Assembly (NCBI GenBank): GCA_041659065.1 | Contig: JBAZYY010000001.1 | Span: 60,847-124,846, forward strand | Source: Parcubacteria group bacterium | GTDB taxonomy: Bacteria > Patescibacteriota > Minisyncoccia > Moranbacterales > UBA11712 | Direction of reading: 5' to 3' | Length of the DNA: 64,000 nucleotides | Shown: positions 13,637 to 59,099 of the stretch, one piece after another | Numbering within the stretch: the first letter of the stretch is position 1 | How the letters are laid out: each line of letters begins with the position of its first letter | Position numbers and translations under genes: made by a program | Notes under the pieces: model-generated | Seen by the model: only the letters and a program-made list of their open reading frames with translations | Database searches by the model: none | Told to the model about the DNA's origin: nothing

Positions 13637-13710
13637 AACAATAAATTAAAAAAAATTAGGGTGGCAAACAGATACCCCCTAAAGGCACGCTTGAAATTTT
13701 TAATCTTATG

Positions 13711-14157
13711 TTAATTTTCCTCAGCCACTAATATCAGCCGCAAATTTGCCTCGAGGCCATGGTCGAGTTCGATTCGGATATCATAATCGCCCATTTCCTT
13801 TATCGGTTCGTCAATCTTCACATTAGCTGCTTCAACCTTCAAACCTTCATTTTTGAGTTCTTTGGCTATATTTTTTTCGTTAACAGATCCAAACAATATC
13901 CCATCTTTTTCTTTGACTTTCATGTATAGTTCCCGTCCCTCCAGTTGTTCAGCAAGACTCTGCACTTCTTGCAATTCCATTTTCGCGTCCTTTTCTTTTC
14001 TGGATTTATTGGCATCTGCTGAGGCGACGTTTTGCTTGGTCGCTTCGACCGCAAAACCTTTCGGAATAAGAAAATTCCTGCCGTATCCATCGGCTACTTC
14101 TTTTATGTCTCCCTCCCCTCCAAGATTGTCCACTTTTTTAGTTAAAACTACCTTCAT
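13711..14157 (-). CDS. rplI: 50S ribosomal protein L9
   Basis: MKVVLTKKVDNLGGEGDIKEVADGYGRNFLIPKG; 148 aa. Confidence 0.9.
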   Translation of the reverse strand: MKVVLTKKVDNLGGEGDIKEVADGYGRNFLIPKGFAVEATKQNVASADANKSRKEKDAKMELQEVQSLAEQLEGRELYMKVKEKDGILFGSVNEKNIAKELKNEGLKVEAANVKIDEPIKEMGDYDIRIELDHGLEANLRLILVAEEN

Positions 14158-44225: not shown

Positions 44226-44334
44226 AGGGGTTTGAAATAAATATTTAACTTGTTTGAAATCTATTTTATCACAATGCAAATGGCATTATCAAATCTTTCT
44301 CGCATTAATGCCGGGGCGAAGGATACAAGCGATA

Positions 44335-44526
44335 TTAGTCCAAATATTGGCCGTTCGGCAGAAGCTTTTCGGGTATTCCCAAACCTTGGTCTCTCAATTT
44401 TTTTCGTTCGCATTTCTCAAAATCATTCGTGCAGTAAATTAATACAATGGCTTCGCGGGACGTATCGGTGCAAAAAAGGCCGTAAATGGGACATTTCTCG
44501 CAATAGGGGCATTCATTTTCTTTCAT
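44335..44526 (-). CDS. Small Cys-rich protein (putative metal-binding), hypothetical
   Basis: 63 aa with seven Cys (CPYCEKC...C...C...C). Confidence 0.4.
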   Translation of the reverse strand: MKENECPYCEKCPIYGLFCTDTSREAIVLIYCTNDFEKCERKKLRDQGLGIPEKLLPNGQYLD

Positions 44527-44598
44527 AGTGGATTTAATATTTATAAATTAAGAGTTCCTTCGGTTATCGGAAAAATTAGCAATAAATGTTGGAAGTCA

Positions 44599-45021
44599 TC
44601 AGGTTAGCAATTTAAAGCCTTTTCGGACTGCGATTTTTTCCGCGTCTCCATCTTGGAAATATTTATCGATCTCATCTTCACTGATCCATCTATAGTCCGA
44701 ATGATCCTCAGAATTCAGCTTGATTTTTTGAGTTGGATCGGCCATTTTCGCAAAATAGTCAATTTCCACGGAATGTTTGTTTTCATTTTCCGAAATATAC
44801 GTGAAAACATGAAACGGATTTTTTACAATCGCTTCAATGCCCAATTCCTCAGAAATTTCTCGCTTGAGCCCATCCTCGATCGTTTCGCCAAATTCGATAT
44901 GCCCGCCAATAAGTTCGTATTTTCCAGGCAGGAATTTTTTCACATCAGCGCGTTTGGCAATAAATAACTTGCCGTCACGATGAAGGAAAACGCAAGCTGT
45001 AATGGCTTGATATTTTTCCAT
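44599..45021 (-). CDS. Nudix hydrolase (MutT-like)
   Basis: Nudix box GGHIEFGETIEDGLKREISEELGIE. Confidence 0.8.
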   Translation of the reverse strand: MEKYQAITACVFLHRDGKLFIAKRADVKKFLPGKYELIGGHIEFGETIEDGLKREISEELGIEAIVKNPFHVFTYISENENKHSVEIDYFAKMADPTQKIKLNSEDHSDYRWISEDEIDKYFQDGDAEKIAVRKGFKLLT

Positions 45022-45133
45022 CTTGATTCATACAATAAACTTGAAAGATGTCTTAATTATACAACCTACGCAAAGAAACACCAGTCTGAGTTGAGCTAGT
45101 GTTTCCTATAAAGTGACTGGTTGCTAGGCTTTA

Positions 45134-45727
45134 TTAAAGTAGGTTTCCACGGCTTGGGCTATACCATTGGCCGCTTTTTCCCACCGCGACAACGCATATC
45201 AAAAGTAACGAAATCGAAATTGGCCACCAAATTTGGGCTTGCCATGGTACGGGAATAAGGAACAGAACATCCGGTGTAGTGAATGACTGGGGCCAGCCGA
45301 TCAGGGCTTTGAGCCAAACATAATAAAAAATGTCCCAAAAAGAAAAGACCCAAAAGAAAATAGCCCAACGATTATACTTTTGTTTGACTGCTACCACTGC
45401 GATGAGCAAAATGAGTATCAAGGTTGCGGCTTCACGATACATTTCCGCGGACAGGAAATTAAACGGCAGCTTGGCAAGAATATCTGCTTGCTGATAAGTG
45501 AAAATTAAAGCTATCCCATCTGTGGAATTGGCAAGTCCTATAGCTCCGCGCAGGTACATTACAACCGCAGCCTCAATATATCCAAATGCAATGCCGAAGA
45601 TAGCCGTATATACCAAAACCGCGCGCGGGATGGAAAGTTTACCGCGCCAAAGATAAAAGCTTATAAAGGGTATCAAGGCAAACAAATTTACCCACCAGGG
45701 CGACGCAAAAAACTGGAATCGGTCCAT
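45134..45727 (-). CDS. Polytopic membrane protein, Trp-rich, hypothetical
   Basis: Five to six TM helices; no recognisable motif. Confidence 0.45.
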   Translation of the reverse strand: MDRFQFFASPWWVNLFALIPFISFYLWRGKLSIPRAVLVYTAIFGIAFGYIEAAVVMYLRGAIGLANSTDGIALIFTYQQADILAKLPFNFLSAEMYREAATLILILLIAVVAVKQKYNRWAIFFWVFSFWDIFYYVWLKALIGWPQSFTTPDVLFLIPVPWQAQIWWPISISLLLICVVAVGKSGQWYSPSRGNLL

Positions 45728-45774
45728 ATTATCTAAAATTTATTTAAACTGCAATGAATGTCCTCGCTGGGTGC

Positions 45775-46188
45775 CTATCCTCTCCCGGCTTTTCGCGCGC
45801 CTTTCTCATCCGAGCCAAAATGGTGGGCAATTTCATGCCGAACAGTGCTCACAATTTGGTTTTTCAGCTCTTCCTTTGTCTGGCAGATGCTTTCCAGCGG
45901 TTTTTTGAAAATAGTGATCCGATCCGGGAATACCGGTCCGACATCAAGCCGCTTGGATTGATGGTACCCCTCATAAAGACCGAGAAGCAGCGCGTTTTTT
46001 CTGCCGCTAAGTTTTGCTTTTTCCAGTTGATCCCGGGTCGGAAAGTCTTCCATAAAAAAAGCCAGATTATGTATCCTATCTTGAAATTTTTTGGGTACGT
46101 TGTCTATGGCTTCAGCTACCCATTTTTCAAATTGTTTTGCGGGAACTTGCATAGTAATGGGCGCGTTTTCATTACTGCTTTTTGCCAA
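45775..46188 (-). CDS. Zincin-like metallopeptidase-family protein (HExxH)
   Basis: HEIAHHFG motif in a ~130 aa protein, consistent with the small zincin-like family. Confidence 0.55.
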   Translation of the reverse strand: MAKSSNENAPITMQVPAKQFEKWVAEAIDNVPKKFQDRIHNLAFFMEDFPTRDQLEKAKLSGRKNALLLGLYEGYHQSKRLDVGPVFPDRITIFKKPLESICQTKEELKNQIVSTVRHEIAHHFGSDEKGARKAGRG

Positions 46189-46269
46189 AGTTATACCCTA
46201 GCAAAGCCTTAATTTCACCTTACTGTCTCTTCTTGCAGCAAAAAGTAATGTATTCGGGAAAAGCAATGA

Positions 46270-47307
46270 TTATTGTTGCGTGAAGATATCTCGGCAAGCG
46301 GTCTGCATCTGGGAATAATTATCCTGTCCCGCTATGGGGACCAAGACATAGCCCACTCCGCCAGTCCCAGGGACCTTCAGAAGGCCCTTCTCAGAATTTT
46401 CAAAAACCCGCTGGACGATATCGGCTTCTTTCAAGCTGATAAATTGGTCATAGAAACCTTTCATTTCATCAGGCGTAAGGTTTGTTTTGACATTATTGCC
46501 GATTATGGTCAGGATATTGTTCAGCTTGCCGAAATCCGCGAGCGTCCCCAACGTTACCAACTTGTCTTTCAACGCTTTGAGAATTACTTGTTGACGCTTG
46601 GAACGGTCGAAGTCATTGGTTGTCTCCCGGGCGCGGGCGTAGCAAAGAGCTTTGTCGCCATTCAAGCGATTGGTACCCGCCGGAAGAGAAAATACTCCTC
46701 CACATTCATTTCCTTCAACAAACTGCTTCGGTTCGGTGAATGGTTTCAGAATTCGTACGTCGACGCCTCCCACCGTATCAATCAGTTGCTTGAAACCGTC
46801 AAAATTAATAACTACTGCGTGATCGATTTTGAGGCCCGTGATTGTCCCCATCATTTCTTCCATTTTTTCCATCCCCTGGGCGCGTCCACCGCTTTGCCAA
46901 TAGGAATAGACTGAATTGATTTTGCCACGCTCATTCGTGCCGGGAATTTGCACGTAAAGGTCTCGCGGGACCGAAATCAGTCCGACTTTATTGTTTTTGG
47001 TGTCAAACGAAGCAACCATAATTGAATCAGCGAGCAGTCCCCCGTGAGGGTCGCTTGCGCCTCGCATGCCCAAAAGCAGGATATTAGTACGCCCATTATC
47101 TCCCGAAAGAGCTTTGGAGCCGCTGAGTAAACTGCCAAGGGCCGAATTGCCCGAGCCGGAGATTTTGTTCATAATATAACCGGTTTTCCAGGCAAAAAAT
47201 CCCCCCACGGCAACGATTATGATGATTACAAACAAGGATAATTTAAACCACCTTTTTTTATAAAATTTTTTCTTATGAGCCAGGCGTTCGGATTGAAAAT
47301 TTTTCAT
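46270..47307 (-). CDS. LytR-CpsA-Psr (LCP) family protein (second copy)
   Basis: N-terminal TM helix; NILLLGMRGASDPHGGLLADSIMVASF...ISVPRDLYV; paralog of 16356-17417. Confidence 0.85.
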   Translation of the reverse strand: MKNFQSERLAHKKKFYKKRWFKLSLFVIIIIVAVGGFFAWKTGYIMNKISGSGNSALGSLLSGSKALSGDNGRTNILLLGMRGASDPHGGLLADSIMVASFDTKNNKVGLISVPRDLYVQIPGTNERGKINSVYSYWQSGGRAQGMEKMEEMMGTITGLKIDHAVVINFDGFKQLIDTVGGVDVRILKPFTEPKQFVEGNECGGVFSLPAGTNRLNGDKALCYARARETTNDFDRSKRQQVILKALKDKLVTLGTLADFGKLNNILTIIGNNVKTNLTPDEMKGFYDQFISLKEADIVQRVFENSEKGLLKVPGTGGVGYVLVPIAGQDNYSQMQTACRDIFTQQ

Positions 47308-47495
47308 TAAGATTTCGCTTATTAGTTAGTAGTATAATTTTTTTCGTGACCGCCAGATTGACTCAATAATTCTAGCACAAACAAAAGCTGTAGTATACCG
47401 TATGCCGCTGCAGCAGTTAAGGTGAAAAGAATCCGACTCCCGCGGGATTTAAAGTTTCTTTGATTTTTTGATCAGCGTCAGTTTTTCAGATTTTC

Positions 47496-47702
47496 TCATT
47501 TTTTTGATTCGAGATTCTTCTTTGGAAGCCGCCGAACGGTTTTTAAATTTTTTGAATAAGCTAATTTCACCGGCCGTCGGGCAAAAGTGTATTTCGCGCC
47601 CAACTTGGAATCGTTATGTTCGGCAATTCTCCGCGCGAGATTCGTGGTAATTCCGGTATATAGAGTTTTGTCGGCGCATTCGAGGATATAAAGGTAGTAC
47701 AT
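47496..47702 (-). CDS. GIY-YIG nuclease-domain protein (short)
   Basis: [29 protein letters not shown]. Confidence 0.7.
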
Positions 47703-47801
47703 AATTCTGTGTTTTGGAATTTAAGCCGGAGCTATATTCCTTAAGCTTAATTCTAGCGAAGCATTGTCACAGCCGCCAAGAGGAAAAGCAGGCGGATGTA
47801 G

Positions 47802-48332
47802 TCAAATAAGTATTAATTTTTTAACAAAGGTTATCTTCGTGCCTTGTTTAATTTCAGTATCTGCAGATTTGACTAATTTTCTCTTTCCCGGCACTTTCAT
47901 AAGTTTTTGTCCGTTGGTTTCAATAATAAATTCATCTGCGAATCCTTTTACTCTTGACAACCCATGTCCCGGTGAACCATATAAGATGTCATTATTCGGA
48001 TCGCCATCCCAGCTTTCATTATCAGCTACTATTACTGTAATTTTATTAGGTTCAAAGTTTACTGCTATTTCACCTCCGGTGGCGTACTCTAACGCATTTT
48101 TGCTCAGTTCAACTATGCAGTAGCAGAGGAAAGATATTTTTGGGTTGGCGGAATCAAGTTGATTCTCGGCAAATATTGTATCTAACCAAGCATTTAATCT
48201 TCCAACTAAGCGGTAAGTATCAATGGGTGTTTCAATATCGCCAAAATGATCGTCATCGAAATGAATTTTATAACATTTGGGATTAGTCTCTTTTTTCTCC
48301 GGTTGCTTAAATAACCTTCCTTCGTCTTCCAT
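47802..48332 (-). CDS. RsbW-like anti-sigma-factor kinase / GHKL ATPase-domain protein
   Basis: N-box-like ELSKNALEYA, G1-like VIVADNESWDG and G2-like GSPGHGLSRVKGFAD. Confidence 0.5.
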   Translation of the reverse strand: MEDEGRLFKQPEKKETNPKCYKIHFDDDHFGDIETPIDTYRLVGRLNAWLDTIFAENQLDSANPKISFLCYCIVELSKNALEYATGGEIAVNFEPNKITVIVADNESWDGDPNNDILYGSPGHGLSRVKGFADEFIIETNGQKLMKVPGKRKLVKSADTEIKQGTKITFVKKLILI

Positions 48333-48383
48333 GCAAATTCTATAAATATTAAGCTAATTATCCTTCTCCCCCGCTATTGGAAT

Positions 48384-48782
48384 TCAGAGCGGCTCATCTC
48401 GATATTCCCCCTTGTAGTTTATAAGTTGATCACTAGGAATTCCAAGCGATAGTCCGTATCGCTCTGCCTCGTCGTATTGCTCTTTGCTTTTGCGATTCAC
48501 GCGGAAAACTTTGTCTCGGTAAATTATATAATGGTGCGTATCGTTTTTGAAATCGGCGTACCAGGAACCGCCGTGCGCGCTGTCGAGCGAGTGGCTGATT
48601 TTTTTCGCGACTGACGCCGCCTCGTCTTCCGGAATGTCAACTTCATGTTTTGTCCACTGTGAAAGCCAAGGGGTTTCATGATGCGCGTCAACTTTTTCAA
48701 TCTCCGTGCCCAAAATTTTGATATCTTTCAAAATATACTTGTTTTCCAGACTCTCTTCGATTATAACGCCTCTGTAGTTCAT
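48384..48782 (-). CDS. Hypothetical protein
   Basis: 132 aa, His-rich, no recognisable motif. Preceded by an AAGGGA RBS and the shared palindromic promoter motif. Confidence 0.45.
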   Translation of the reverse strand: MNYRGVIIEESLENKYILKDIKILGTEIEKVDAHHETPWLSQWTKHEVDIPEDEAASVAKKISHSLDSAHGGSWYADFKNDTHHYIIYRDKVFRVNRKSKEQYDEAERYGLSLGIPSDQLINYKGEYRDEPL

Positions 48783-48804
48783 ATATTTCCCTTATACACC
48801 GTCG

Positions 48805-48847
48805 GAATTACATAATTATTTTATCCCTAAGATTAGACTTTAGAAAT
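48805..48847. repeat. Bipartite palindromic promoter motif, copy 1 (GGAATTACATAATT ... CCCTAAGATTAGACTTTAGAAA)
   Basis: Read from sequence; a degenerate copy of the motif also seen at 48881-48919 and 50072-50127. Confidence 0.6.
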
Positions 48848-48880
48848 GGCTACAAATTGCATCATAATATTACGGCCGTG

Positions 48881-48919
48881 GAATTATGAATCTGTTTCCT
48901 AAAGTTCGACTTTAGGAAT
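48881..48919. repeat. Bipartite palindromic promoter motif, copy 2 (GGAATTATGAAT ... TCCTAAAGTTCGACTTTAGGA)
   Basis: The 21-nt hairpin TCCTAAAGT-tcg-ACTTTAGGA is identical to the one at 50106-50126. Confidence 0.65.
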
Positions 48920-48927
48920 GATTGGAT

Positions 48928-50025
48928 TTATCTTTTTCGAGAATATGCCAATTGCTTACCGCGAAATTGCTTCTTTGCCGCAATATGCTTTGCCTTATCA
49001 CTCGTTTTATGTTTTATTCTTGCGATCTGGTCGGCTATCATTCGCTCGGCGTAATATTGTCTTTTGTCTCTCGCATTCTTTGGATCAAAATCTTTCCCTT
49101 TTTCTTTGAGGAGCCACTTTCTAATGAGCTTTTGCTCGTCTGGTGTGGCTAAAGTAGCGAATTCTTCTGGATAATTAATATATTGTTCACAGAGTATCGC
49201 CCAATATTCTGTCGTTATGAGATAATTTTTTTCATTGGGGTTAGGATTTCTAATTGCAGCAAGATAATTTCGAAAGACGCTTGTATTCGCAAGCTCGGAA
49301 GTCTGATAAGCGCGGCTCACTTCGACAAAAAAATCAATCCTTTGCTCCGGTGTCATAAAATTACTGAACGTCCCCTGATGCATATGCCCTATCTCGTGGC
49401 TTAATCTTAGAACAATTAACCTCGCATTATAACTAACTCCAAGCTCTTTCCCTTTATATTTTGCATTTTGGGGCGCTTTAAAAAAAATCAGATTGTCCTT
49501 GTTGAGACTTTCAACTCCTCCGACGACATAATCATTTTGCATCCCGTATTTGGGCTGAGCCTTATAAACCTTATTTTGAAATTTTACTTCTGCAACATTT
49601 TTGTTTATTGTTCCCGCAGGATAACATCCTTCTTCTTCGCTAAAAATTTTTGACAAAAATTTCTGGTCAACTCCAAGCTTTTCGAACCCAATTATTTTTG
49701 GGCGAGCTGGAATTTTTCCCTTGGCTTCGCGAGCCTGTTTGTCGGCAATCGATAATTGTTCAAATAAGTAATCCGAGTATAAATCATCGAGGTATTCAAT
49801 TTTTTCCCGATACTCCGGGTTATTTTTTAAAATTCTTTCTCTATATTTTTCAGCTGCCTGTGATTTGACTTGTTTTTTGGCTAGCGCCGCGTCACTTGTG
49901 CCCAAAGTCAAAATTCCGGCTGCCAATGCGACGTTAGCGAATTTTTTAAACAAATTTCTTTTTGCCACAGGATTATTTTCAGAATCCGAAACTTTTTTTA
50001 TTTTGGTAAAATTTTCAAGTCCCAT
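48928..50025 (-). CDS. Secreted HExxH-motif protein (putative zinc metallopeptidase), Lys-rich
   Basis: N-terminal signal/anchor (VALAAGILTLGTSDAALA), LSHEIGHMHQG motif and a basic C-terminus. Confidence 0.55.
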   Translation of the reverse strand: MGLENFTKIKKVSDSENNPVAKRNLFKKFANVALAAGILTLGTSDAALAKKQVKSQAAEKYRERILKNNPEYREKIEYLDDLYSDYLFEQLSIADKQAREAKGKIPARPKIIGFEKLGVDQKFLSKIFSEEEGCYPAGTINKNVAEVKFQNKVYKAQPKYGMQNDYVVGGVESLNKDNLIFFKAPQNAKYKGKELGVSYNARLIVLRLSHEIGHMHQGTFSNFMTPEQRIDFFVEVSRAYQTSELANTSVFRNYLAAIRNPNPNEKNYLITTEYWAILCEQYINYPEEFATLATPDEQKLIRKWLLKEKGKDFDPKNARDKRQYYAERMIADQIARIKHKTSDKAKHIAAKKQFRGKQLAYSRKR

Positions 50026-50071
50026 AAGGCTAATCTATTCTATGTGATTTTTTATATCTTCCCTCGCCGCC

Positions 50072-50127
50072 GGAATTACGTAATTTGTCATGTAGCTCCC
50101 CTGATTCCTAAAGTTCGACTTTAGGAG
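50072..50127. repeat. Bipartite palindromic promoter motif, copy 3 (GGAATTACGTAATT ... TCCTAAAGTTCGACTTTAGGA)
   Basis: Perfect 12-nt palindrome AATTACGTAATT plus a perfect 9-bp-stem hairpin; upstream of the HExxH gene. Confidence 0.65.
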
Positions 50128-50186
50128 AGATTATTGTCTGCACGATTATTTATTTACCTCCCCGATTCATAATCGCCAACTCTCTC

Positions 50187-50555
50187 TTAACTCTCGATAA
50201 TTACCTCCACCTTATCTAAATCAAAAACCTCTTTAACCTCAATGATGATCGCGCATTTGACCTCAAATTTTGTGCCTTTGTTTCTTTTTTTGGCGATTTC
50301 GAAATATTCTCCTTTGTCATGAAGATCGGCCGTCCCTTTGAGGCGCAGATATTTCCCGCTGTTCATGGCGACGACCGAAACCCGATTGTCTTTTTTGAGA
50401 TTCGAAAGAGTCGTTTGCGTTTGGCAAGCATTGATGAGTAATTTTTCACCAATGAAGCCCTCCGACATCATCACGATGGTATGCGGCCCGCTTTCTTCGG
50501 AATAGGTCGCAAGAACCAGCTCCACTCCCTCTTTAAATATTTCTTTCCAGTCCAT
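50187..50555 (-). CDS. Pyridoxamine 5'-phosphate oxidase-like FMN-binding split-barrel protein
   Basis: 122 aa with a family-like N-terminus (VELVLATYSEESGPHTIVMM) and C-terminus (YLRLKGTA). Confidence 0.55.
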   Translation of the reverse strand: MDWKEIFKEGVELVLATYSEESGPHTIVMMSEGFIGEKLLINACQTQTTLSNLKKDNRVSVVAMNSGKYLRLKGTADLHDKGEYFEIAKKRNKGTKFEVKCAIIIEVKEVFDLDKVEVIIES

Positions 50556-50753
50556 AAATTTTATTTACTTAGATAATCGCGGATTTGTAATCCTTTCCTA
50601 GCTAAACAGGGCTTTGTCGTTTAATGAGGCAGTAAACCAACCGATGTCGCCCACGAGCTTAATTGGCAGGGTGAGCTTGATGCTGCATCCTCATCCTAGC
50701 CCAAATTCCGCATTATTTCAAATAAAAAGCCCCGGTCGGAAAAAAATGAAACA

Positions 50754-50790
50754 TTGACAATGGGTGGTTTTTGCTGTAATTTTCAGAAAA
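50754..50790 (+). promoter_or_regulatory. Sigma70-like promoter (TTGACA ... TGTAAT) upstream of the 50809 ORF
   Basis: TTGACA at 50754-50759 and a -10-like TGTAAT ~15-17 nt downstream; GAGGAGG RBS 7 nt before the ATG. Confidence 0.45.
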
Positions 50791-50808
50791 ATACCGAGAT
50801 GAGGAGGC

Positions 50809-51228
50809 GTGGCCATGGAGGGATATGGGGGAAAAATTTCACAAAAAATAGCCAGAATTTGGAATCGCGTCATTGTCAGGAGTAACTATGATGTACTCTA
50901 TGACGAACTCCGAAGCCTGGAGTTCTTTTGCATCCTGTTCGTAGTTGGGGCTTTCGGCTTCCTTTTTGCCCAATGCGAATTCGCATCAGTTTTAGAAAAA
51001 GATCAATTTCTCGTGTTTCTTGAGGCGATCTTTTTTCTCTTACAAGCCGTGATGGCATTATTTCTGAAGGCCGCATCAAAAAAAGCCATCCTCAGGCTCA
51101 AGAAGGACTTTGAGTTCATCAATAGCGGATTTGCGCGCATGATAATCTTAACTAGGTACGAACGTGCCGGTGCGCAATTCCGCAGGATGTTGAGAAAAAT
51201 TTTCCCTGGCCAGTTGAGAGGTATATAA
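50809..51228 (+). CDS. Small membrane protein, hypothetical
   Basis: Good promoter and RBS, two hydrophobic helices and a basic C-terminus. Confidence 0.4.
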   Translation: MAMEGYGGKISQKIARIWNRVIVRSNYDVLYDELRSLEFFCILFVVGAFGFLFAQCEFASVLEKDQFLVFLEAIFFLLQAVMALFLKAASKKAILRLKKDFEFINSGFARMIILTRYERAGAQFRRMLRKIFPGQLRGI

Positions 51229-51250
51229 GAAAGCTCCCACCTGTCATCAA

Positions 51251-51285
51251 GGGCATCCCGCTGGCTGGGATGCCCTGCTTTATAT
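51251..51285. terminator. Hairpin GGGCATCCC-gctggct-GGGATGCCC between convergent genes
   Basis: Perfect 9-bp stem followed by a T-rich tract. Confidence 0.55.
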
Positions 51286-51321
51286 ACAAAGCAACTTTAT
51301 AATTCAAAAAAAATATCTTTT

Positions 51322-51879
51322 TCAACCTTTCAGCTTTTTGACCCAAGCGATAAGCGCAACCAACAGCTCCTCTATTTTTTCCTTGCTCTTCTCATTTTGA
51401 ATTTTGCCGCCTATGATATTTTCCGCTGCGAATGGCACCATGACTTCCGGGCGATTGATTGGATACATATCAAGAAAAACAAAAGACTGGCGGAGATGAT
51501 ATTGTGCTCTCGCTCCTCCGAGCATGCCAATTGAAGCGCTCATGACAGCCACCGGTTTTCCCTCAAGGCTGTTGTCGCCGTGAGGACGCGAAGCCCAGTC
51601 AATGGCATTTTTAAGCACGCCGGGGATTGAATAATTATATTCAGGAGAGGCAATTAGGACTGCGTCAGCTGATTTTACCAAATTTTTGAATTTTTTCACG
51701 CCTTCGGACGGATTAGTTTCGAAGTCTTGATTAAACAAGGGAAGGTTGATGTCCGCGATTTCAATTTCCGCTTCCGGCGGGCAAATTTTCAGAGCTTCGT
51801 TCATCAAAGCTTTGTTGTAGGAATCTTCGCGTAGACTACCAATCAGTCCGACTATTTTTATTTTGGGTGCGTTATTCAT
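51322..51879 (-). CDS. NADPH-dependent FMN reductase (flavodoxin-like fold)
   Basis: IKIVGLIGSLREDSYNKAL N-terminus typical of the NADPH-dependent FMN reductase family; 185 aa. Confidence 0.8.
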   Translation of the reverse strand: MNNAPKIKIVGLIGSLREDSYNKALMNEALKICPPEAEIEIADINLPLFNQDFETNPSEGVKKFKNLVKSADAVLIASPEYNYSIPGVLKNAIDWASRPHGDNSLEGKPVAVMSASIGMLGGARAQYHLRQSFVFLDMYPINRPEVMVPFAAENIIGGKIQNEKSKEKIEELLVALIAWVKKLKG

Positions 51880-51903
51880 ATCTTCAAATCTAATAATTAT
51901 TGC

Positions 51904-53139
51904 TTATGAATGCGATATCTGATAGATTACCCCGGCTTTGTCGTCCGATACGTAAATTTTCCCGTCTGGTCCGGTGACAATCCCGACAGGTCGGCCGAGG
52001 GCTTGGCTGTTTCCGGCCAGCCATCCGGTGGCAAAATCTTCCGAACCGAGATAATTTCCGGAGGCGTCGAATTTAAAGCGGACTATCTTATATCCTGTCG
52101 GAACGCTTCTGTTCCATGAGCCGTGGTAAGCGACCAGGAGGTCATTCTGGTAGTCCGCGGGAAATTGGCTTCCCTGGAGAAAATCAAGCCCGAGCGGAGC
52201 GGAATGCGCCTGGATGTCGATGAAAGAAGGCTCGGTAGTTTTGCAAAAATCAATTTTAGCTCCGGCGGGATCAAAATTGGAGTCATGAACTTGCTTTCCA
52301 TAGCAATAAGGCCAGCCGTAGTTTTTTCCTTCGCGAATTATATCGATTGTATCCGGGGGCAAGTTATCACCCAGGAAATCCCGACCCATATCCGTGGCCC
52401 AAATTTCGTTTGTTTTCGGATCCACGGCCATGAACACGGCGTTCCGGAGGCCGGTGGCAAACGGCTGGAAATTGCTTCCGTCTTTATTGAGGGAGGAAAT
52501 TGCCGCCCGGCGCGCATCATTCTCGACGCAGGCGTTGCAAGAAGACCCGATTGAGACATACAGCCGTCCGTCCGGACCGAACAGCAGGCTGCGGGTAGTG
52601 TGCTCGCCTCCCGCGGGCAGATCAACAATTTTTTGCTTGGTCGCTTCGGTGTAGAGAGGAATTTTCGAGATTTGGTTTTCTTCGCCGATATAGAGCGTGG
52701 CCGCGGCATCCGGATCAAGCGCGAGCCCATGTGGATGGTTAAGTCCCGTCAGGACATCGCTTTGATTCATGACGACGCCATTTTGAATTTCGAGTTGAGT
52801 CACAACGCCGGCAGAGGGGCGACTGACCCACATATTGCCAAGCTTATCAAAAATCATTACCCGTGCGTCCGGAAGATTTTTGGCAAAAATAGAAATTGAA
52901 AATCCGGCCGGCAAGGTTAGTGGCAACCCGGTGGAATTGGTCGTATTCGTTGGGGCTGCAGGACTGGGGGAATTATTCGAAGCAGTTTGGATTGTAGTGG
53001 GCAAGAAATCAGTAATGTTCTGCGCCGGTTTCTGAAAGGCCGGGGCGCTGCCTCGAAAATTTTTCCACACAAAATACCCGCCCCCGGAAAGCAGGATGAT
53101 GACTGCTAAAATCATTGCAAATATGGATATTTTTTTCAT
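51904..53139 (-). CDS. Membrane-anchored PQQ-dependent sugar dehydrogenase-like beta-propeller protein
   Basis: N-terminal TM helix; HPHGLALDP, HTTRSLLFGPDGRLYVSIGS and GRPVGIVTGPDGKIYVSD repeats resembling soluble glucose/sorbosone dehydrogenases. Start at an internal Met (MKKISIF). Confidence 0.55.
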   Translation of the reverse strand: MKKISIFAMILAVIILLSGGGYFVWKNFRGSAPAFQKPAQNITDFLPTTIQTASNNSPSPAAPTNTTNSTGLPLTLPAGFSISIFAKNLPDARVMIFDKLGNMWVSRPSAGVVTQLEIQNGVVMNQSDVLTGLNHPHGLALDPDAAATLYIGEENQISKIPLYTEATKQKIVDLPAGGEHTTRSLLFGPDGRLYVSIGSSCNACVENDARRAAISSLNKDGSNFQPFATGLRNAVFMAVDPKTNEIWATDMGRDFLGDNLPPDTIDIIREGKNYGWPYCYGKQVHDSNFDPAGAKIDFCKTTEPSFIDIQAHSAPLGLDFLQGSQFPADYQNDLLVAYHGSWNRSVPTGYKIVRFKFDASGNYLGSEDFATGWLAGNSQALGRPVGIVTGPDGKIYVSDDKAGVIYQISHS

Positions 53140-53338
53140 AATGCGTTTGGCGTGAAAAATTATCACTTACCCTCTATTGCAGTTATTACAATCAATCAGC
53201 AGATTTCTTTAAGGATTATAGCATATTTTGCCGCAAAACAATTTCTTGCAAGCTATCGAATTTTAGGCCTGGAACTTGATAATTACCGAAAAATCGAATA
53301 GAATAAATGAGTCTGTTTATCCAGATTGCCGTGTATAT

Positions 53339-53412
53339 TGGGGAGTAGCCAAGCGGTAAGGCAGTGGCCTCTGAAGCCACCATCGGGGGTCCGAATCCCT
53401 CCTCCCCAGCCA
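53339..53412 (+). tRNA. tRNA-Gln (anticodon CUG)
   Basis: Manual cloverleaf: acceptor UGGGGAG/CUCCCCA (U1-A72), D-arm GCC...GGC, anticodon stem GUGGC/GCCAC with loop CUCUGAA, T-arm GGGGG-UCCGAAU-CCCUC, CCA encoded. Confidence 0.85.
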
Positions 53413-53652
53413 TCTTTCGCCAAGGCTTCAGAGTGGCTTTGAAACAATCTTTTGCGTAAGACCACAGAGTGGCTTTGGCTGCAATAAAATGTTCTATTTA
53501 TATATTATTTATAGCTCAAAATCTAGAAATTTCTATTACGTCTAAAATCTGGATCAGAAAAAGCTTTCGCATATAAAAGACTGCTGAATTTGGAAGCCTT
53601 AAGGAAAGATAAGTGAAGCGCCTTTGGTATTCCGAAGCTTTAGCGAAGGATA

Positions 53653-53666
53653 CCCTCCTCCCCAGC
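53653..53666 (+). repeat. 14-nt direct repeat of the tRNA-Gln 3' end (CCCTCCTCCCCAGC), 243 bp downstream of the tRNA
   Basis: Exact match to 53397-53410 inside the tRNA T-arm/acceptor. Confidence 0.55.
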
Positions 53667-53703
53667 TGATAAATTAACTTTTAGAAAATATTTACTTAAG
53701 CGC

Positions 53704-54474
53704 ATGGATAGAGTTGTGCTATTCCGTTATCACAAAAAACCGCTTATTTGTCGCAGCAGATTGCGGCTGATAAGAAAATTTAATCCGAGAATAAAGATTT
53801 TCGGACTTTATGGCGGGAAGGAATCGCAATTTCCAAAGTATCAAAAATATCTGGGATCATTTTTTGAGCATAATTACTGCATAAAAGGCAAATCAAATAA
53901 TTGGAAATGGAAAAACAGCGATCTGGCTATCAAGCTGTGGTATAAAAGTATTGGCAAAAAAATTGAATTTGATATGCTTCACGTTATTGAGTGGGATCTT
54001 TTGCTTTTCGATTCGTTGGATAAAATTTATAAAAAAATTCCTGAAAATAGCCTGGGCTTAACAGCTCTTACTCCATATAAAAACGTTGAAAATAAATGGT
54101 TCAAGCCATTTAGAGGTGAGTGGATAAAGCTATTGAAATACGCGCAGGATAAGTATAGCTATAACGGAAAACCCCAGGCCGCGCTGGGGCCAGGCTTTTG
54201 CCTCCCCAAAAAATTCTTGGAGAAGTATAGCGAAATTCAAGTTCCTGTATTATGTAACGATGAATTGCGCCTGGCGTTATTTGGTCAAATTTTTAAGCAT
54301 AAACTAATTAATACGGGCTTCTACCTAAAATGGTTTGATTTTGTTGGAGAGCTGCTTTTTAATTGCAGGGGGAAAGAAATTCCTTTGGCGTTAATTAGAA
54401 GAGAGCTTAAGAAAAAGGGCGGAAAAAGATCATTTCATCCTTTCCGAAAACGACTTAAAAAATCTATGCTATAG
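53704..54474 (+). CDS. Hypothetical protein, Lys-rich
   Basis: 256 aa ORF with no recognisable motif and no obvious RBS; lies in the tRNA-adjacent islet. Confidence 0.4.
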   Translation: MDRVVLFRYHKKPLICRSRLRLIRKFNPRIKIFGLYGGKESQFPKYQKYLGSFFEHNYCIKGKSNNWKWKNSDLAIKLWYKSIGKKIEFDMLHVIEWDLLLFDSLDKIYKKIPENSLGLTALTPYKNVENKWFKPFRGEWIKLLKYAQDKYSYNGKPQAALGPGFCLPKKFLEKYSEIQVPVLCNDELRLALFGQIFKHKLINTGFYLKWFDFVGELLFNCRGKEIPLALIRRELKKKGGKRSFHPFRKRLKKSML

Positions 54475-54570
54475 CTTTTTCATATATATTAAAAAAAATT
54501 CAAACATTGTCTCGCAATTGAAGCAACTGTTAAAATAATAGCTTGCAAAAGCTTTTTTCGTTTGCTTAAA

Positions 54571-54599
54571 TTGACAATGGAGATAAAAAAGACTATAAT
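54571..54599 (+). promoter_or_regulatory. Consensus sigma70 promoter TTGACA-N17-TATAAT with ~175 nt leader before the 54775 gene
   Basis: TTGACA at 54571-54576 and TATAAT at 54594-54599; a palindromic CCATCAATGATGG lies just downstream of the -10. Confidence 0.55.
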
Positions 54600-54774
54600 A
54601 GATAGTTGACCATCAATGATGGCAATTTTTGTTTTTGGGATTGGAGTTTAGTTATTATCTTAGGTTCCTTAAATAACGTAATTTTTTCTACGATGCTAGC
54701 TTTTTTTCGCTTATAAATAGGAAAAAGAAAGCTCGTCTCGTAGAGAGAGCTATTAAATTTTATGGAGGTGTACG

Positions 54775-55584
54775 ATGGCAGCAAAGTCGTATGCTACTGG
54801 CTGGACCTCGGAATCCCCGACGCCCGCCCAGATGAAAGAGTTCATGGCACAAGCTGAAAGCGGTCGGATCACTAAAACCCGGATGCAAAATTTTCTTCGG
54901 GCAAACCATGACCAGATTCTGCTTTCCAGAACGACCGAGGCAGAAGCTCGGGCGAGCGAGATTTTAGATCGCCGCAATGTTATCACTGCCTATGAGGTCG
55001 CAGAGAGATGGGCAATGGAAATTGATCCCCCTACCCGGATTCCCTACACCGCAAAAACGTTGGAAAGGTGTGCCCGGGAAAATGACAGTAATGAGAACTG
55101 GTACCTGATTTATGTCATCGGACTTTCATTGCGTGAGCAATACAGCATCCGTGGACCTAATATTCCCGGCGGTCGGGGTGGGAGTTTTAGGGGCAAACCG
55201 CCTGATATCAGCGACGAATATCTAGAGCGTTCATTTCAATCTGGATACTACCTCTTAAACATCCGGTGCAATTTCACTAAAATGAGGTGGCAAGATCAGA
55301 CAAATGTTATAGGGGCCTGGGGTGAAAAATATAAGCGCGCAGACGAGCGCATGCTTAGCGAGGTTATGCTATCTCGCCTTATGGTGAAATATGTTCACTT
55401 CGCTGGCATTTATCCTGGATTCTATCACTGGGGATTTGGGATGATGCCCGAATGCAATGGTAAGAGGATGGGAAGAGTCACTCTATATCAGGAGGGCGGT
55501 AATATCTGCTTTTCCTCCCAGCATCCTGACCACTTTAGTTCCTCAAACTATGGCGTCGTCATGCTTCGTGAGCCCGATTTCTAA
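54775..55584 (+). CDS. Hypothetical protein encoded by a compositionally atypical (GC-rich) gene
   Basis: Strong GGAGGTG RBS 6 nt upstream. GC content is visibly ~10 points above neighbouring genes. Strong terminator downstream. No recognisable motif. Confidence 0.55.
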   Translation: MAAKSYATGWTSESPTPAQMKEFMAQAESGRITKTRMQNFLRANHDQILLSRTTEAEARASEILDRRNVITAYEVAERWAMEIDPPTRIPYTAKTLERCARENDSNENWYLIYVIGLSLREQYSIRGPNIPGGRGGSFRGKPPDISDEYLERSFQSGYYLLNIRCNFTKMRWQDQTNVIGAWGEKYKRADERMLSEVMLSRLMVKYVHFAGIYPGFYHWGFGMMPECNGKRMGRVTLYQEGGNICFSSQHPDHFSSSNYGVVMLREPDF

Positions 55585-55645
55585 GCCACGGGTTAAGAGG
55601 TAAAATTTAGGGTATTTGTCAAATAACCTGATCCCTTCTTCGAAG

Positions 55646-55688
55646 CCGAGGTGCTGCAGCGCAGTACACACCTCGGTTTTCTTTTTTT
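55646..55688 (+). terminator. Rho-independent terminator after the GC-rich gene
   Basis: CCGAGGTG-15 nt loop-CACCTCGG followed by T-run TTTTCTTTTTTT. Confidence 0.75.
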
Positions 55689-55736
55689 AAAAGCAAACTT
55701 ATAAAATCCATATCGCGTATAAGTAAAAAACCGACC

Positions 55737-55766
55737 TCTCGAGGCCGGTTTTAAATAGGTCAGGTA
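55737..55766 (-). terminator. Putative terminator downstream of ftsX
   Basis: CCGACCTC-tc-GAGGCCGG hairpin with flanking A/T runs. Confidence 0.45.
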
Positions 55767-55772
55767 AAAAAA

Positions 55773-56681
55773 TCATATCTTCAAATATTTTCGGATGGCA
55801 ATGAGGCTGCTGATTGTGCCGAGAAGAATTCCCGCGAGGACTATGACCAAAAAAATGAGGATAAAATAGCGGGAAAAATCAGCTTGGACGACACTGACAT
55901 AACTTGAACCGACAATCATCGGAGTAACAATCTTAATCATAGGAAACAGAAACGCGGTCGAGATGACGGCGGCGACAACGCCGTAAATAATCCCTTCAAA
56001 TACGAATGGCAAGCGAATGAAGCTGTTGGATGCCCCTACAAGGCGCATAATTTCAATTTCATCGCCGTGCGTGTAGATTGTCATGCGAATGACGTTGAAC
56101 GTGATCAAAATCGCTATGGACGCAAAGAGGATAAACAGAAAGAGGCCGGTTTTGCGCACGGTTTTGAGAGTTGTGCTAAAGCGGTCAATCACCAGCTTGT
56201 ATTGCCGGTAATTGATGCTATTAATGTCTTGCTTGAAGGCGGAATTCTCAATTGAGCTCGCAATGACCTCATATTGCTCCGGATTCGTCGCTTTTATATT
56301 GATCGACGCCAGGAGCGGATTTTCATCCACAGCGTCCACTGCCTTCAAAATGTCAGGCTTATCGGCATTGTTGGTTTTGAATTCATCCAGAGCCTCATTC
56401 TTTGAGACATATTCCGCTGATTTGACTTCTTTATATCTTGATACTTCGCTCTTAAATTCAAGAATCCTGGACTCCGTTACTTCGCTTTTAAAATAGACCC
56501 GGATATCAAGCTTGTCCTGGATATATTTGAGGCCGAGATTGGCTGTGATGCTCAAAACCAGGATGATGCTGATAATAATGAGGGCTAAGGTCAAAATACT
56601 GACCGCGGCGACGCTCAGTGATCCGTTTCGATAGAAATTCAGAAAGCCTGATTTAGTTGTTCTCTTAAGAAGTACCCACAT
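55773..56681 (-). CDS. ftsX: Cell-division ABC transporter permease FtsX
   Basis: Four TM helices with a large extracellular loop after TM1; 302 aa; immediately downstream of ftsE. Confidence 0.8.
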   Translation of the reverse strand: MWVLLKRTTKSGFLNFYRNGSLSVAAVSILTLALIIISIILVLSITANLGLKYIQDKLDIRVYFKSEVTESRILEFKSEVSRYKEVKSAEYVSKNEALDEFKTNNADKPDILKAVDAVDENPLLASINIKATNPEQYEVIASSIENSAFKQDINSINYRQYKLVIDRFSTTLKTVRKTGLFLFILFASIAILITFNVIRMTIYTHGDEIEIMRLVGASNSFIRLPFVFEGIIYGVVAAVISTAFLFPMIKIVTPMIVGSSYVSVVQADFSRYFILIFLVIVLAGILLGTISSLIAIRKYLKI

Positions 56682-56700
56682 GACCTAAATTTAAAAAATA

Positions 56701-57414
56701 TTAAATTGCATAGCGGCCTTTGGAGTGGTCCCGAATAATTCTGCCTTGGTCTAGTGTTATCACTCTCCGTTTAATGTTATTTACGATATCCTTATCATGC
56801 GTGGCCAGAAGCACGGTCGTGCCCAGCTTATTGATCTTGAGGAGCAGCTGGATAATTCCCCAAGCGCTGATGGGATCGAGGTTTCCAGTCGGCTCATCGG
56901 CAATAATCAATGCGGGTCTGTGCACCAAAGCTCGGGCGATAGCGACTCTCTGCTGTTCTCCTCCGGAAATTTCCCGCGGATAACTTTTCATTTTGGTATG
57001 AAGCCCGACGATTTCCAAAATCTGCGGTACGGATTCTTCGATCTCGCGGTCGGTATGCCCGGACACTTCAAGCGCAAAAGAAACATTTTCAAAAACGGTT
57101 TTTTTAGGGAGAAGCTTAAAGTCTTGAAATACCGTGCCGATCCTGCGCCTGTGTCGGGGAAGCTGTTTGGAGGTAATTAAAGTGATATCCTCGCCATTAA
57201 AAAGAATTTGTCCGGAAGTCGGTTTGTCTTCGGAATAAAGCAGCTTCAAGATTGTTGATTTACCGGCGCCGCTGTGTCCCACAATGGAAACAAAATCTTT
57301 TTCTTCAATATCAAAAGAAACATCGTCCAATGCGACGCAGTTGGCGGCTCCAGTATATATCTTCTGTACATTTATAAATTGAATCATCGGCATAAGAGAA
57401 ATCTCAAAGCTCAA
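56701..57414 (-). CDS. ftsE: Cell-division ATP-binding protein FtsE
   Basis: Walker A GHSGAGKST, ABC signature ISGGEQQRVAIARAL and Walker B LIIADEPT. Confidence 0.9.
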   Translation of the reverse strand: MSFEISLMPMIQFINVQKIYTGAANCVALDDVSFDIEEKDFVSIVGHSGAGKSTILKLLYSEDKPTSGQILFNGEDITLITSKQLPRHRRRIGTVFQDFKLLPKKTVFENVSFALEVSGHTDREIEESVPQILEIVGLHTKMKSYPREISGGEQQRVAIARALVHRPALIIADEPTGNLDPISAWGIIQLLLKINKLGTTVLLATHDKDIVNNIKRRVITLDQGRIIRDHSKGRYAI

Positions 57415-57447
57415 ATGTCAAAAGTTAAAACTATGAAAATTATTTTT

Positions 57448-58543
57448 TTATAACTTGCAATTATCCGCGAGATAAGCTTCGACGAATGCGTCCAGATCCC
57501 CATCTAAAACGTCGGCTGGATTTTTGGACTCAACCTTTGTGCGATGGTCTTTGACCAGTTGATAGGGATGCAAAACATAAGATCTAATTTGACTCCCCCA
57601 CTGAACCGACGCGTGTTCGCCCTTGAGGCTCTCTTTTTCTTTTGCTTTTGCTTCCAGATTTTTCTGGAACAGTTTTGCTTTCAGTATATTTAAAGCTTTT
57701 TCTTTGTTTTGCAGCTGGCTTCGCTCGCTTTGGCAAGTGGCGGTTATTCCGGTCAGGAGATGCGTGATTCTGACTGCGCTTGAGGTTTTATTGACCGATT
57801 GACCCCCGGCTCCCCCGGAGCGATAAGTGTCGATTCGCAGATCCTTGGGGTCAAATTCGACTACATCCGAGGCCGAATCAAGCTCTGGTAAAATCTCAAC
57901 TAGTGCAAAGGATGTTTGCCTCAGATTATTGGCGTTAAACGGAGACAGTCTGACCAGGCGGTGGATGCCGGCTTCCGAGCGAAGATTTCCATAAGCCATC
58001 CTACCTCTGATTTCCAAGGTCGCGCTCTTAATCCCGGCCTCCTGTCCTCGGGATTCGGATATTATCTTAGCGTGCCATTTTTTTCTCTCGGCAAAACGCA
58101 GGTACATTCGCATCAGCATCTCAGCCCAATCCTGCGCGTCCACTCCGCCTGTACCGCTATGAATGCTTAAAATCACATTACGGTTGTCATATTCTCCTTG
58201 GAATGTCATTTCCTTTTCGAGTTCAAGTAGTTTCTGATCAAGCATTTCAAGCTCGGTCTGGATTTCCCTTTCCATCTTCTTGTCATTTGCGGAAATTTTT
58301 GAAAGTTCGGAAAGATTATTCAGGGAAGATTCAGTCTCGGACAGTCCGCTTACTTCTTTTTTGAGCATCTCCAGCTCTTTTAAGGTTTCCTGCGCTTTCT
58401 CCGGATTCTGCCAGAAGTTTTCATCCGCACTTAAGACCTCGAGTTCGGTGATTTTTTTTGATTTCGAGGCAAAGTCAAAGACAGTCACTTAACGAATTGA
58501 CTCTCAGGCGCATCTCATCAATTTTGTTCAAAATTTCTTGCAT
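57448..58543 (-). CDS. prfB: Peptide chain release factor 2, expressed via programmed +1 ribosomal frameshift
   Basis: SPF tripeptide-anticodon motif and GGQ motif (SGGAGGQSVNKT). Frame 0 runs from ATG 58543-58541 through MQEILNKIDEMRLRVNSLSDCL and ends at CTT TGA C (58480-58474). The +1 frame continues as DFASKSKK... to 57448. Confidence 0.85.
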
Positions 58544-58550
58544 TGGCCTA

Positions 58551-58559
58551 ATTATAACA
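58551..58559 (-). promoter_or_regulatory. Extended -10 element TGTTATAAT 7 nt upstream of the prfB ATG (leaderless-type promoter)
   Basis: Read on the minus strand: ...ATGTTATAATTAGGCCAATG. Confidence 0.4.
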
Positions 58560-58783
58560 TAGAGGGACATTTCCGCCAATATCCAGGGTAATAAGTAGCT
58601 AACTTTTGGGAGTAAATTTGGCTGAAATCATGGAATTATTTGCGCTCAGGAAAATAGTTGCTATAATTCAGAATGTTGTTGTGGGCCTGTGATATTTTCC
58701 TTTGAGTTTCAAAGGTTAAGCTAAAGGACTACTAAACAGTTGAAAAAAACTATTACTTTAACTATCGAGGGAAAATATGGCAG

Positions 58784-58857
58784 GCGGGATTAGTTTAGTG
58801 GCAGAACACGACCTTCCCAAGGTTGAAACACGGGTTCGATTCCCGTATCCCGCTCCA
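58784..58857 (+). tRNA. tRNA-Gly (anticodon CCC)
   Basis: Manual cloverleaf: acceptor GCGGGAU/AUCCCGC, anticodon stem CGACC/GGUUG with loop UUCCCAA, T-arm ACGGG-UUCGAUU-CCCGU, CCA encoded. Confidence 0.85.
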
Positions 58858-59011: not shown

Positions 59012-59072
59012 AGGCTTAGGTAGGCGGGGCGACGCAATTCCGCCAAAGGCGGATAAACTCCACGCGTAGGTC

Positions 59073-59099
59073 GCCGGTTCGATCCCGGCCATCGGCTCA
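59073..59099 (+). pseudogene. tRNA 3' fragment (T-arm GCCGG-TTCGATC-CCGGC plus acceptor 3' strand CATCGGC-T-CA) lacking an upstream D/anticodon arm
   Basis: Canonical T-loop. The acceptor strand pairs perfectly with GCCGATG at 58865-58871, ~205 nt upstream. No anticodon arm can be folded from the intervening sequence. Confidence 0.4.

Follow-up and report, generated by a model that had tools for sequence, protein, structure and literature searches.

Cis-mobilizable elements (CIMEs), known among the relatives of ICESt1, are att-bounded segments without integration or transfer genes, which come to lie in tandem at the target gene by accretion (PMC5704250). Likewise, tandem islands at the ssrA gene of Dehalococcoides are separated by 20-bp repeats of the ssrA 3' end (PMC3146451). 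We describe an islet resembling both in a 64,000-nucleotide stretch of a Parcubacteria group bacterium (assembly GCA_041659065.1, contig JBAZYY010000001.1, positions 60,847 to 124,846), which we call the window and in whose coordinates positions are given unless another locus is named. The islet fills the space between the 3' end of a tRNA-Gln(CUG) gene and the stop codon of ftsX, and consists of a short spacer and two genes, ORF1 and ORF2 (open reading frames 1 and 2).

With the CIMEs and the Dehalococcoides islands the islet shares tandem units with copies of the target RNA's 3' end between them, the distal copies being more decayed. Set beside a CIME, it keeps two identical repeat copies (copies 1 and 2), without any gene in the 242-bp unit between them and without mobility genes in the unit of ORF1 and ORF2. 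It differs from the CIMEs in its tiny units (0.24 and about 2 kb), in that no functional mobilising partner was found, and in its host, a bacterium of the candidate phyla radiation (CPR); the literature searched held no description of CIME-type or accretion-type elements in CPR bacteria. Islands and prophages that are targeted to tRNA genes by tyrosine integrases likewise lie directly 3' of a tRNA, show a 3'-end repeat starting in the T-stem, are absent in relatives and carry accessory cargo, but the islet has no integrase, excisionase or mobility gene, its perfect repeat pair encloses 242 bp only, its composition is not atypical and its 2.4 kb are far below the typical size. In our reading, the junction of tRNA-Gln(CUG) 3' end and ftsX stop is probably an insertion hot spot in a Parcubacteria/Moranbacteria-like lineage, holding a decayed, integrase-less composite islet that would have been built in two steps. 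It is real, but as a CIME-like islet at a tRNA hot spot specific to the lineage it is ordinary: small, decayed and mechanistically conventional.

The insertion is recognised by comparison with relatives, in which the gene order MurJ-LepA-DivIC-SurA-tRNA-Thr-tRNA-Gly-prfB-ftsE-ftsX is kept. Five relative loci, representing three distinct arrangements, have a tRNA-Gln(CTG) gene (the DNA form of the anticodon) on the opposite strand to ftsX and convergent with it, as in the window. The distances from the ftsX stop to the tRNA-Gln 3' end are as follows.

L018 and L019: 42 bp, with only a terminator hairpin between
L020: 55 bp, with only a terminator hairpin between
L022 and L023: 145 bp
window: 2,360 bp (53413-55772)

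No homologue of ORF1 or ORF2 occurs in the loci of the relatives. By parsimony, the contrast between 42-145 bp in the relatives and 2,360 bp in the window implies that spacer, ORF1 and ORF2 are an insertion, and the segment which the initial annotation had proposed as an integration remnant is neither conserved nor syntenic. The junction is occupied in another relative as well. In L021 the tRNA-Gln 3' end and ftsX are 5.7 kb apart, and genes for TspO, GmrSD_N/HNH, T5orf172, an EcoRI-type methylase and Ymh lie between them. This 5.6-kb island (L021: 7935-13601) is bounded by 49-bp direct repeats of 98% identity (7935-7983 and 13553-13601), each of which joins the tRNA's final 6 nt to its terminator; it contains no integrase, and L024 has a related island (74-77% nucleotide identity). 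We regard the L021 island as a defence island of the restriction/GmrSD type, independent of the islet in the window. The presence of the L021 and L024 islands at the same junction suggests that tRNA-Gln/ftsX is a recurrent, repeat-generating insertion site in the clade. The anatomy of the window locus is as follows.

53339-53412, + strand: tRNA-Gln(CUG) with encoded CCA (ARAGORN; Rfam RF00005, 62.2 bits), the proposed integration target
53397-53410, + strand: repeat copy 1 (attL-type core), exact 14-mer CCCTCCTCCCCAGC
53413-53652, + strand: gene-free remnant of 240 bp (the spacer), from ORF list and GC content
53422-53477, + strand: two 20-nt direct repeats, 85% identical, 12 and 48 bp past copy 1
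53653-53666, + strand: repeat copy 2, identical to copy 1, at the junction of the remnant and the ORF1-ORF2 block
53704-54474, + strand: ORF1, 256 amino acids, putative GT-A-fold glycosyltransferase without a Pfam family
55628-55648, + strand: repeat copy 3, decayed tRNA 3' end CTGATCCCTTCTTCGAAGCCG, proposed distal boundary of the older island
55643-55688, + strand: hairpin AAGCCGAGGTG...CACCTCGGTTT followed by a T-run and abutting copy 3, the ORF2 terminator
55727-55752, - strand: ftsX terminator (terminator scan)
55773-56681, - strand: ftsX, conserved right-hand flank (Pfam FtsX_ECD and FtsX; synteny in relatives)

The 14-mer of copies 1 and 2 covers the 3' strand of the T-stem, the 3' strand of the acceptor stem, the discriminator and the first C of the encoded CCA. 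The initial annotation had the last 14 nt of tRNA-Gln recur 243 bp downstream: the recurrence is exact, but the repeated segment corresponds to tRNA positions 59-72 rather than to the literal gene end, and 242 bp separate the copies. Identity ends on both sides of the 14-mer, which is present in exactly two copies in the window; no further match with up to 2 mismatches was found on either strand, where 0.22 would be expected. A repeat of 14 bp falls short of what ordinary homologous recombination requires, so that site-specific or microhomology-mediated events are the likelier ones. The 14-mer of copy 2 was not found upstream of an ORF1 homologue elsewhere. Concerning the earlier proposal of an attL/attR-type integration remnant, a scar with foreign cargo and no integrase is supported by the comparison with relatives that had been suggested there, but the 14-bp pair brackets 242 bp only; both genes lie outside the pair, and the boundaries are better explained by an older island that ends at copy 3.

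Copy 3 came to light in a scan of the window for sites that agree with the final 21 nt of tRNA-Gln (CGAATCCCTCCTCCCCAGCCA) at 14 positions or more. On the + strand there are four such sites: tRNA-Gln itself, copy 2 (16/21), the 3' end of tRNA-Gly, and positions 55628-55648 (14/21), which lie in the 188-bp intergenic region between ORF2 and ftsX and are oriented as the tRNA. At the distal end of the whole 2.36-kb block there is a candidate decayed copy, the score of which is reached by 89 of 20,000 shuffles of the intergenic region; elsewhere, about 128,000 positions yielded 1 match. The adjoining hairpin is probably the original tRNA-Gln terminator, and in relatives a terminator hairpin stands directly after tRNA-Gln. 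We consider it fairly probable that copy 3 is the original tRNA 3' end, displaced together with this terminator by a first integration.

The islet could have formed as follows. In a first step, an element carrying, or later gaining, ORF1 and ORF2 would have recombined with the tRNA 3' end and moved the original 3' end and terminator towards ftsX, where they would now be seen as decayed copy 3 and the hairpin; the older unit of about 2 kb (53667-55627), with ORF1 and ORF2, would be the one between copies 2 and 3. A second element would then have entered the same tRNA core, pushing the then-functional core to the position of copy 2, and would subsequently have been deleted to 240 bp, leaving the two 20-nt repeats; the younger unit would be the one between copies 1 and 2. 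ORF2 may have arrived, or been replaced, recently as a single-gene cassette of about 0.9 kb. On this order of events copy 2 would be perfect because it was part of a functional tRNA until the second event, while copy 3 would be decayed because drift has been unconstrained in it from the first event on.

The spacer has no ORF of more than 38 amino acids, in line with the initial annotation, which had called the segment ORF-free and AT-rich; its AT-richness is only mild, with 36% GC against a window mean of 42.2% and 27-40% in neighbouring intergenic DNA. The second direct repeat recorded there at 53428-53475 is likewise real, with corrected coordinates: the 20-nt repeats contain an exact 13-mer CAGAGTGGCTTTG at 53429-53441 and 53465-53477, for which 0.08 occurrences are expected. 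In the decayed element these repeats may have served a recombinase as arm-type sites, and their position would suit such sites. The spacer further contains an imperfect inverted repeat of 18 nt with 83% complementarity (53412-53429 and 53593-53610). An identity as a miniature inverted-repeat transposable element was rejected: the flanks lack a target-site duplication, and neither the window nor the fetched loci contain a second copy. Neither does the spacer have DNA similarity to any fetched locus, L021 included. A structured RNA was rejected as well (fold z-score -0.87, no Rfam match), and so were degenerate tRNA copies, for which the alignment in direct orientation is not significant (839 of 2,000 shuffles). 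Just 3' of the tRNA, GGCTTCAGAG at 53424-53433 is the exact reverse complement of nt 31-40 of the anticodon arm; the significance of this inverted 10-mer is marginal (24 of 2,000 shuffles).

The tRNA-Gln of the window (TGGGGAGTAGCCAAGCGG...CCCTCCTCCCCAGCCA) has a canonical bacterial D-arm (GCCAAGCGGTAAGGC), and a different D-arm (TCTAATGGTAGGA) is common to four relatives. Its identity to the tRNA-Gln of relatives is 64-74%, compared with 78-97% for the neighbouring tRNA-Gly and tRNA-Thr. This low identity may reflect either gene replacement or divergence of the lineage.

ORF1, first recorded as an unknown ORF, does exist at that place but is not simply unknown, being a conserved GT-A-fold protein. 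More than 120 homologues with 32-81% identity were found, mostly in CPR metagenomes, none of them with a precomputed Pfam domain; they stand in unrelated and mutually differing contexts with no tRNA near them. The AlphaFold2 model, computed from an alignment of 68 sequences, has a predicted local distance difference test score (pLDDT) of 96.6, and a Foldseek search of it against PDB returned glycogenin, LgtC, mannosylglycerate synthase and UGGT (E=3e-6 to 5e-5, probability 1.0, template modelling (TM) score 0.33-0.49); viral GT-A proteins match the model equally distantly. Across the 68 sequences W97, D98 and H245 never vary, and E96 hardly does. As far as the sequences tell, this suggests that E96-W97-D98 and H245 form a DxD-like metal site plus a distal His. 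With the retaining GT8 enzymes glycogenin and LgtC, ORF1 shares the predicted GT-A fold, and its ExD motif and C-terminal His recall in position their DxD...H metal site, but it differs from them in having no Pfam or NCBIfam membership and a TM score of only about 0.4-0.5. Searches against Pfam (including Glyco_transf_8) and NCBIfam at E <=0.1, and against PHROGs and PADLOC, gave no match, and a profile of the family returned only noise from PDB sequences. Judged by its model, ORF1 is probably a nucleotide-sugar transferase of an undescribed family and not a mobility gene. A word-indexed protein search with ORF1 gave 81% as the best hit and no self-match at 100%, though the identical gene is called on L010; the identical FtsX came back at 100%, and ORF2 only through a cluster representative of 94% identity.

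The features of ORF2 are the following.

54571-54599, + strand: perfect sigma-70-type promoter consensus TTGACA-17-TATAAT, a consensus match only
54698-55584, + strand: ORF2 cassette of 5' leader with hairpin, strong GGAGGTG ribosome-binding site and coding sequence
54775-55584, + strand: ORF2 coding sequence, 269 amino acids, unannotated family

The word-indexed database holds one close homologue (P0121, 94%), and an exhaustive HMMER search found 279 distant ones. The locus of P0121 (L001) is 93% identical to the window at the DNA level over 54698-55582 only (L001: 2512-3395), so that the common block consists of leader and coding sequence and ends at the stop codon; the promoter consensus, 176 bp upstream of ORF2, falls outside it. 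The flanks in L001 are unrelated to the window, with an S8 peptidase upstream and a Y1_Tnp-like gene of 220 amino acids downstream. A family member of only 38% identity stands in the same context between an S8 peptidase and a 220-amino-acid gene, which implies that this context is old for the family and that the location in the window is derived. The ratio of nonsynonymous to synonymous substitution rates (dN/dS) is 0.17, which marks a functional gene. The near-identical copy in an unrelated context and the derived location indicate a recent single-gene transfer of ORF2 into its place in the window; the GC content of L001 gives no direction of the transfer. The initial annotation had considered ORF2 visibly GC-richer and compositionally foreign. 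Its GC content of 0.491 is indeed higher, but not significantly so (z=+1.8 among 62 ORFs), and the adjacent GSDH-like gene reaches 0.509; ORF2 is no GC outlier, and what marks it as foreign is the 93%-identical copy in an unrelated context, not its composition.

ORF2 has no match in Pfam, PHROGs, NCBIfam or PADLOC, nor have 44 members of its family in PHROGs and Pfam; a profile of the family found only noise in PDB sequences, and the AlphaFold2 model from the single sequence is unusable (pLDDT 33). Residues 3-49 (54775-54920) form a conserved N-terminal module of about 45 amino acids, GWxSxSPTPAQLKEFFAQIExGRITKxxLQxFLRG, which many metagenomic proteins with otherwise unrelated C-terminal parts share at 55-67% identity and which P0264 contains twice. 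The module has no Pfam match; a Nif11-like leader was considered for this N-terminus and rejected for lack of Pfam support.

The 5' side of the tRNA is variable too. In L020 and in the contig of P0129, tRNA-Gln is directly followed by DUF5652-Cpn10-rhodanese-fmt-def-priA, whereas in the window about 9 kb of unrelated genes (44280-53338) lie between tRNA-Gln and its DUF5652, Cpn10 and rhodanese genes. The islet is the 3'-side part of a plasticity region of about 11.5 kb that is centred on tRNA-Gln. The genes at 44280-53338 include NUDIX, LytR_cpsA_psr, PNPOx-like, FMN reductase, GSDH-like and several without a family. Among them, a small GIY-YIG gene at 47496-47702 on the - strand (Pfam E=1e-12) has its C-terminal part in another frame and is either a frameshifted pseudogene or affected by a sequencing error; there are no tRNA remnants near it. 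In L021 (13596-14039), an exact second copy of nt 1-55 of tRNA-Gln stands 372 bp before the complete gene, on its upstream side. This partial copy breaks off at about nt 60, and its T-loop carries a double-hairpin insert of 40 nt; a GIY-YIG ORF (13673-13933) lies between the partial and the complete gene in the same orientation. In another relative, L008 (1-3058), a tRNA-Gln identical to that of L018 shares its strand with ftsX, from which a TspO gene separates it; this orientation is opposite to that in all other loci and suggests a local inversion. At 59014-59098, right after tRNA-Thr, ARAGORN calls an 85-nt tRNA-Phe with anticodon AAA; with no Rfam match at E <=1, this call is doubtful.

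An assembly artefact can be set aside, since L010, an independent Logan assembly from another sample, is 100% identical over 53337-58828, both repeat copies included. Two loci from other samples (L011 and L012) are likewise 100% identical from the 3' end of ORF1 through ORF2 to ftsX. L010 ends exactly at the 5' end of tRNA-Gln (53337) and inside tRNA-Gly (58828), and these breaks at tRNAs could reflect strain variation or graph branching. Contigs of metagenome-assembled genomes (MAGs) do often break or mis-join at tRNAs, as L010 does at its start; given that three other samples reproduce parts of 53337-58828 at full identity, and that a 14-mer repeat is expected only about 0.2 times in the window even with up to 2 mismatches, the chance that the pair is fortuitous or a chimera at the tRNA is practically negligible.

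Several points weigh against a two-step integration. Its polarity is set by parsimony, and the nearest relatives are distant: a 'Parcubacteria group bacterium' MAG encodes a protein identical to the FtsX of the window, the next ones are Candidatus Moranbacteria-like at 72-75%, and there are none between. Distant relatives or the same strain were all that FtsX brought up in scans of genomes and metagenomes, which yielded neither a closer relative nor an empty-site strain. Copy 3 is weak and was found post hoc. Pfam detected no integrase, recombinase, excisionase or transfer gene among the ORFs of at least 100 amino acids at about 41.7-64 kb; the initial annotation was correct in seeing no integrase, and with no recombinase found we infer a recombinase-mediated mechanism from the anatomy of the locus alone. 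The composition does not mark the region as foreign: the GC content is 40% for the whole insertion, compared with 42% on average in the window, and 0.36 (z=-1.8) for ORF1. Finally, no phage or plasmid link of either gene family was found: phage and plasmid collections (tblastn) gave no match for ORF2, viral contigs none for ORF1 or ORF2, and these searches yielded no intact related integrative and conjugative or integrative and mobilizable element. Alternatively, ORF1 and ORF2 could each have come into the gap on its own, through illegitimate or microhomology recombination, for instance after DNA uptake, with the 14-bp repeat as one small unrelated event and copy 3 as chance. The sharply bounded single-gene block of ORF2, the many unrelated, tRNA-free contexts of ORF1 homologues, the differing GC contents (0.36 and 0.49), the missing recombinase and the mere 14/21 of copy 3 would all agree with separate acquisitions. 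Copy 3, however, stands at the predicted place, abutting a terminator as in relatives, and repeat-bounded islands do form at this junction, as L021 demonstrates, so that we regard separate entry as unlikely, if still deserving attention. That the segment is ancestral and was deleted in the sampled Moranbacteria-like lineages is a very remote prospect. The relatives, being about equally distant from the window in FtsX, could form one sister clade, for which a single loss suffices, but repeats of the tRNA 3' end lie on either side of the material, synteny is lacking among ORF1 homologues, L021 and L024 have another island in the gap, and the 93%-identical ORF2 occurs in a foreign context whose synteny is conserved in the family.

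The second integrase-mediated step could alternatively be replaced by a small GIY-YIG cassette that targeted the T-arm of tRNA-Gln, duplicated part of the tRNA and left the spacer as its wreck. In L021 a GIY-YIG gene does lie between a partial tRNA-Gln (nt 1-55/60) and the complete one with a breakpoint at about nt 60, and the repeated fragment of the window starts at nt 59. Moreover, a short spacer ORF starting at 53489 (MFYLYII...) resembles the start of the GIY-YIG gene at 47702; these two are the only matches to M[FY]Y[LVI]Y[IL][ILV] in the six-frame translation of the window, and the motif, which was defined after seeing the sequence, arose in 1 of 200,000 random spacer-like sequences. 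The Pfam model PF01541, which matches the L021 gene at 5e-14 and the window gene at 47.5 kb at 1e-12, has no match to the spacer peptide even at E <=10, however, and the tblastn likeness of the peptide is confined to 7 residues. The geometry in L021 is also opposite, the duplicated part being the 5' part and lying upstream, and the lack of DNA similarity between spacer and L021 counts against a common cassette. We rejected a GIY-YIG pseudogene as the identity of the spacer, since only the seven-residue start motif speaks for it and the hidden Markov model search is negative, and retain the cassette as a minor and improbable rival to the second integration. A broader possibility, to which we give slightly less credence still, is that the junction is a hot spot independent of integrases, where GIY-YIG cassettes or recombination between tRNA-end and terminator repeats make partial tRNA duplications that seed the accretion of cargo, and that ORF2 represents a new modular family in which the 45-residue N-terminal module is combined with interchangeable C-termini. 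If so, the cargo would be a defence island in L021 and L024, and a glycosyltransferase and a modular ORF2-family protein in the window.

Under the two-step integration at the tRNA 3' end, which we favour, the formation of islands at tRNA 3' ends, their tandem accretion and their decay to integrase-less remnants would also shape the very small genomes of CPR bacteria (Patescibacteria). The comparison names tRNA-Gln(CUG) beside ftsX as a recurrent hot spot, the cargo of which differs by lineage and includes a defence island in a relative. It likewise draws attention to two uncharacterised protein families, a widespread one with a predicted GT-A fold and no Pfam model, and a modular one with an N-terminal module of 45 residues.

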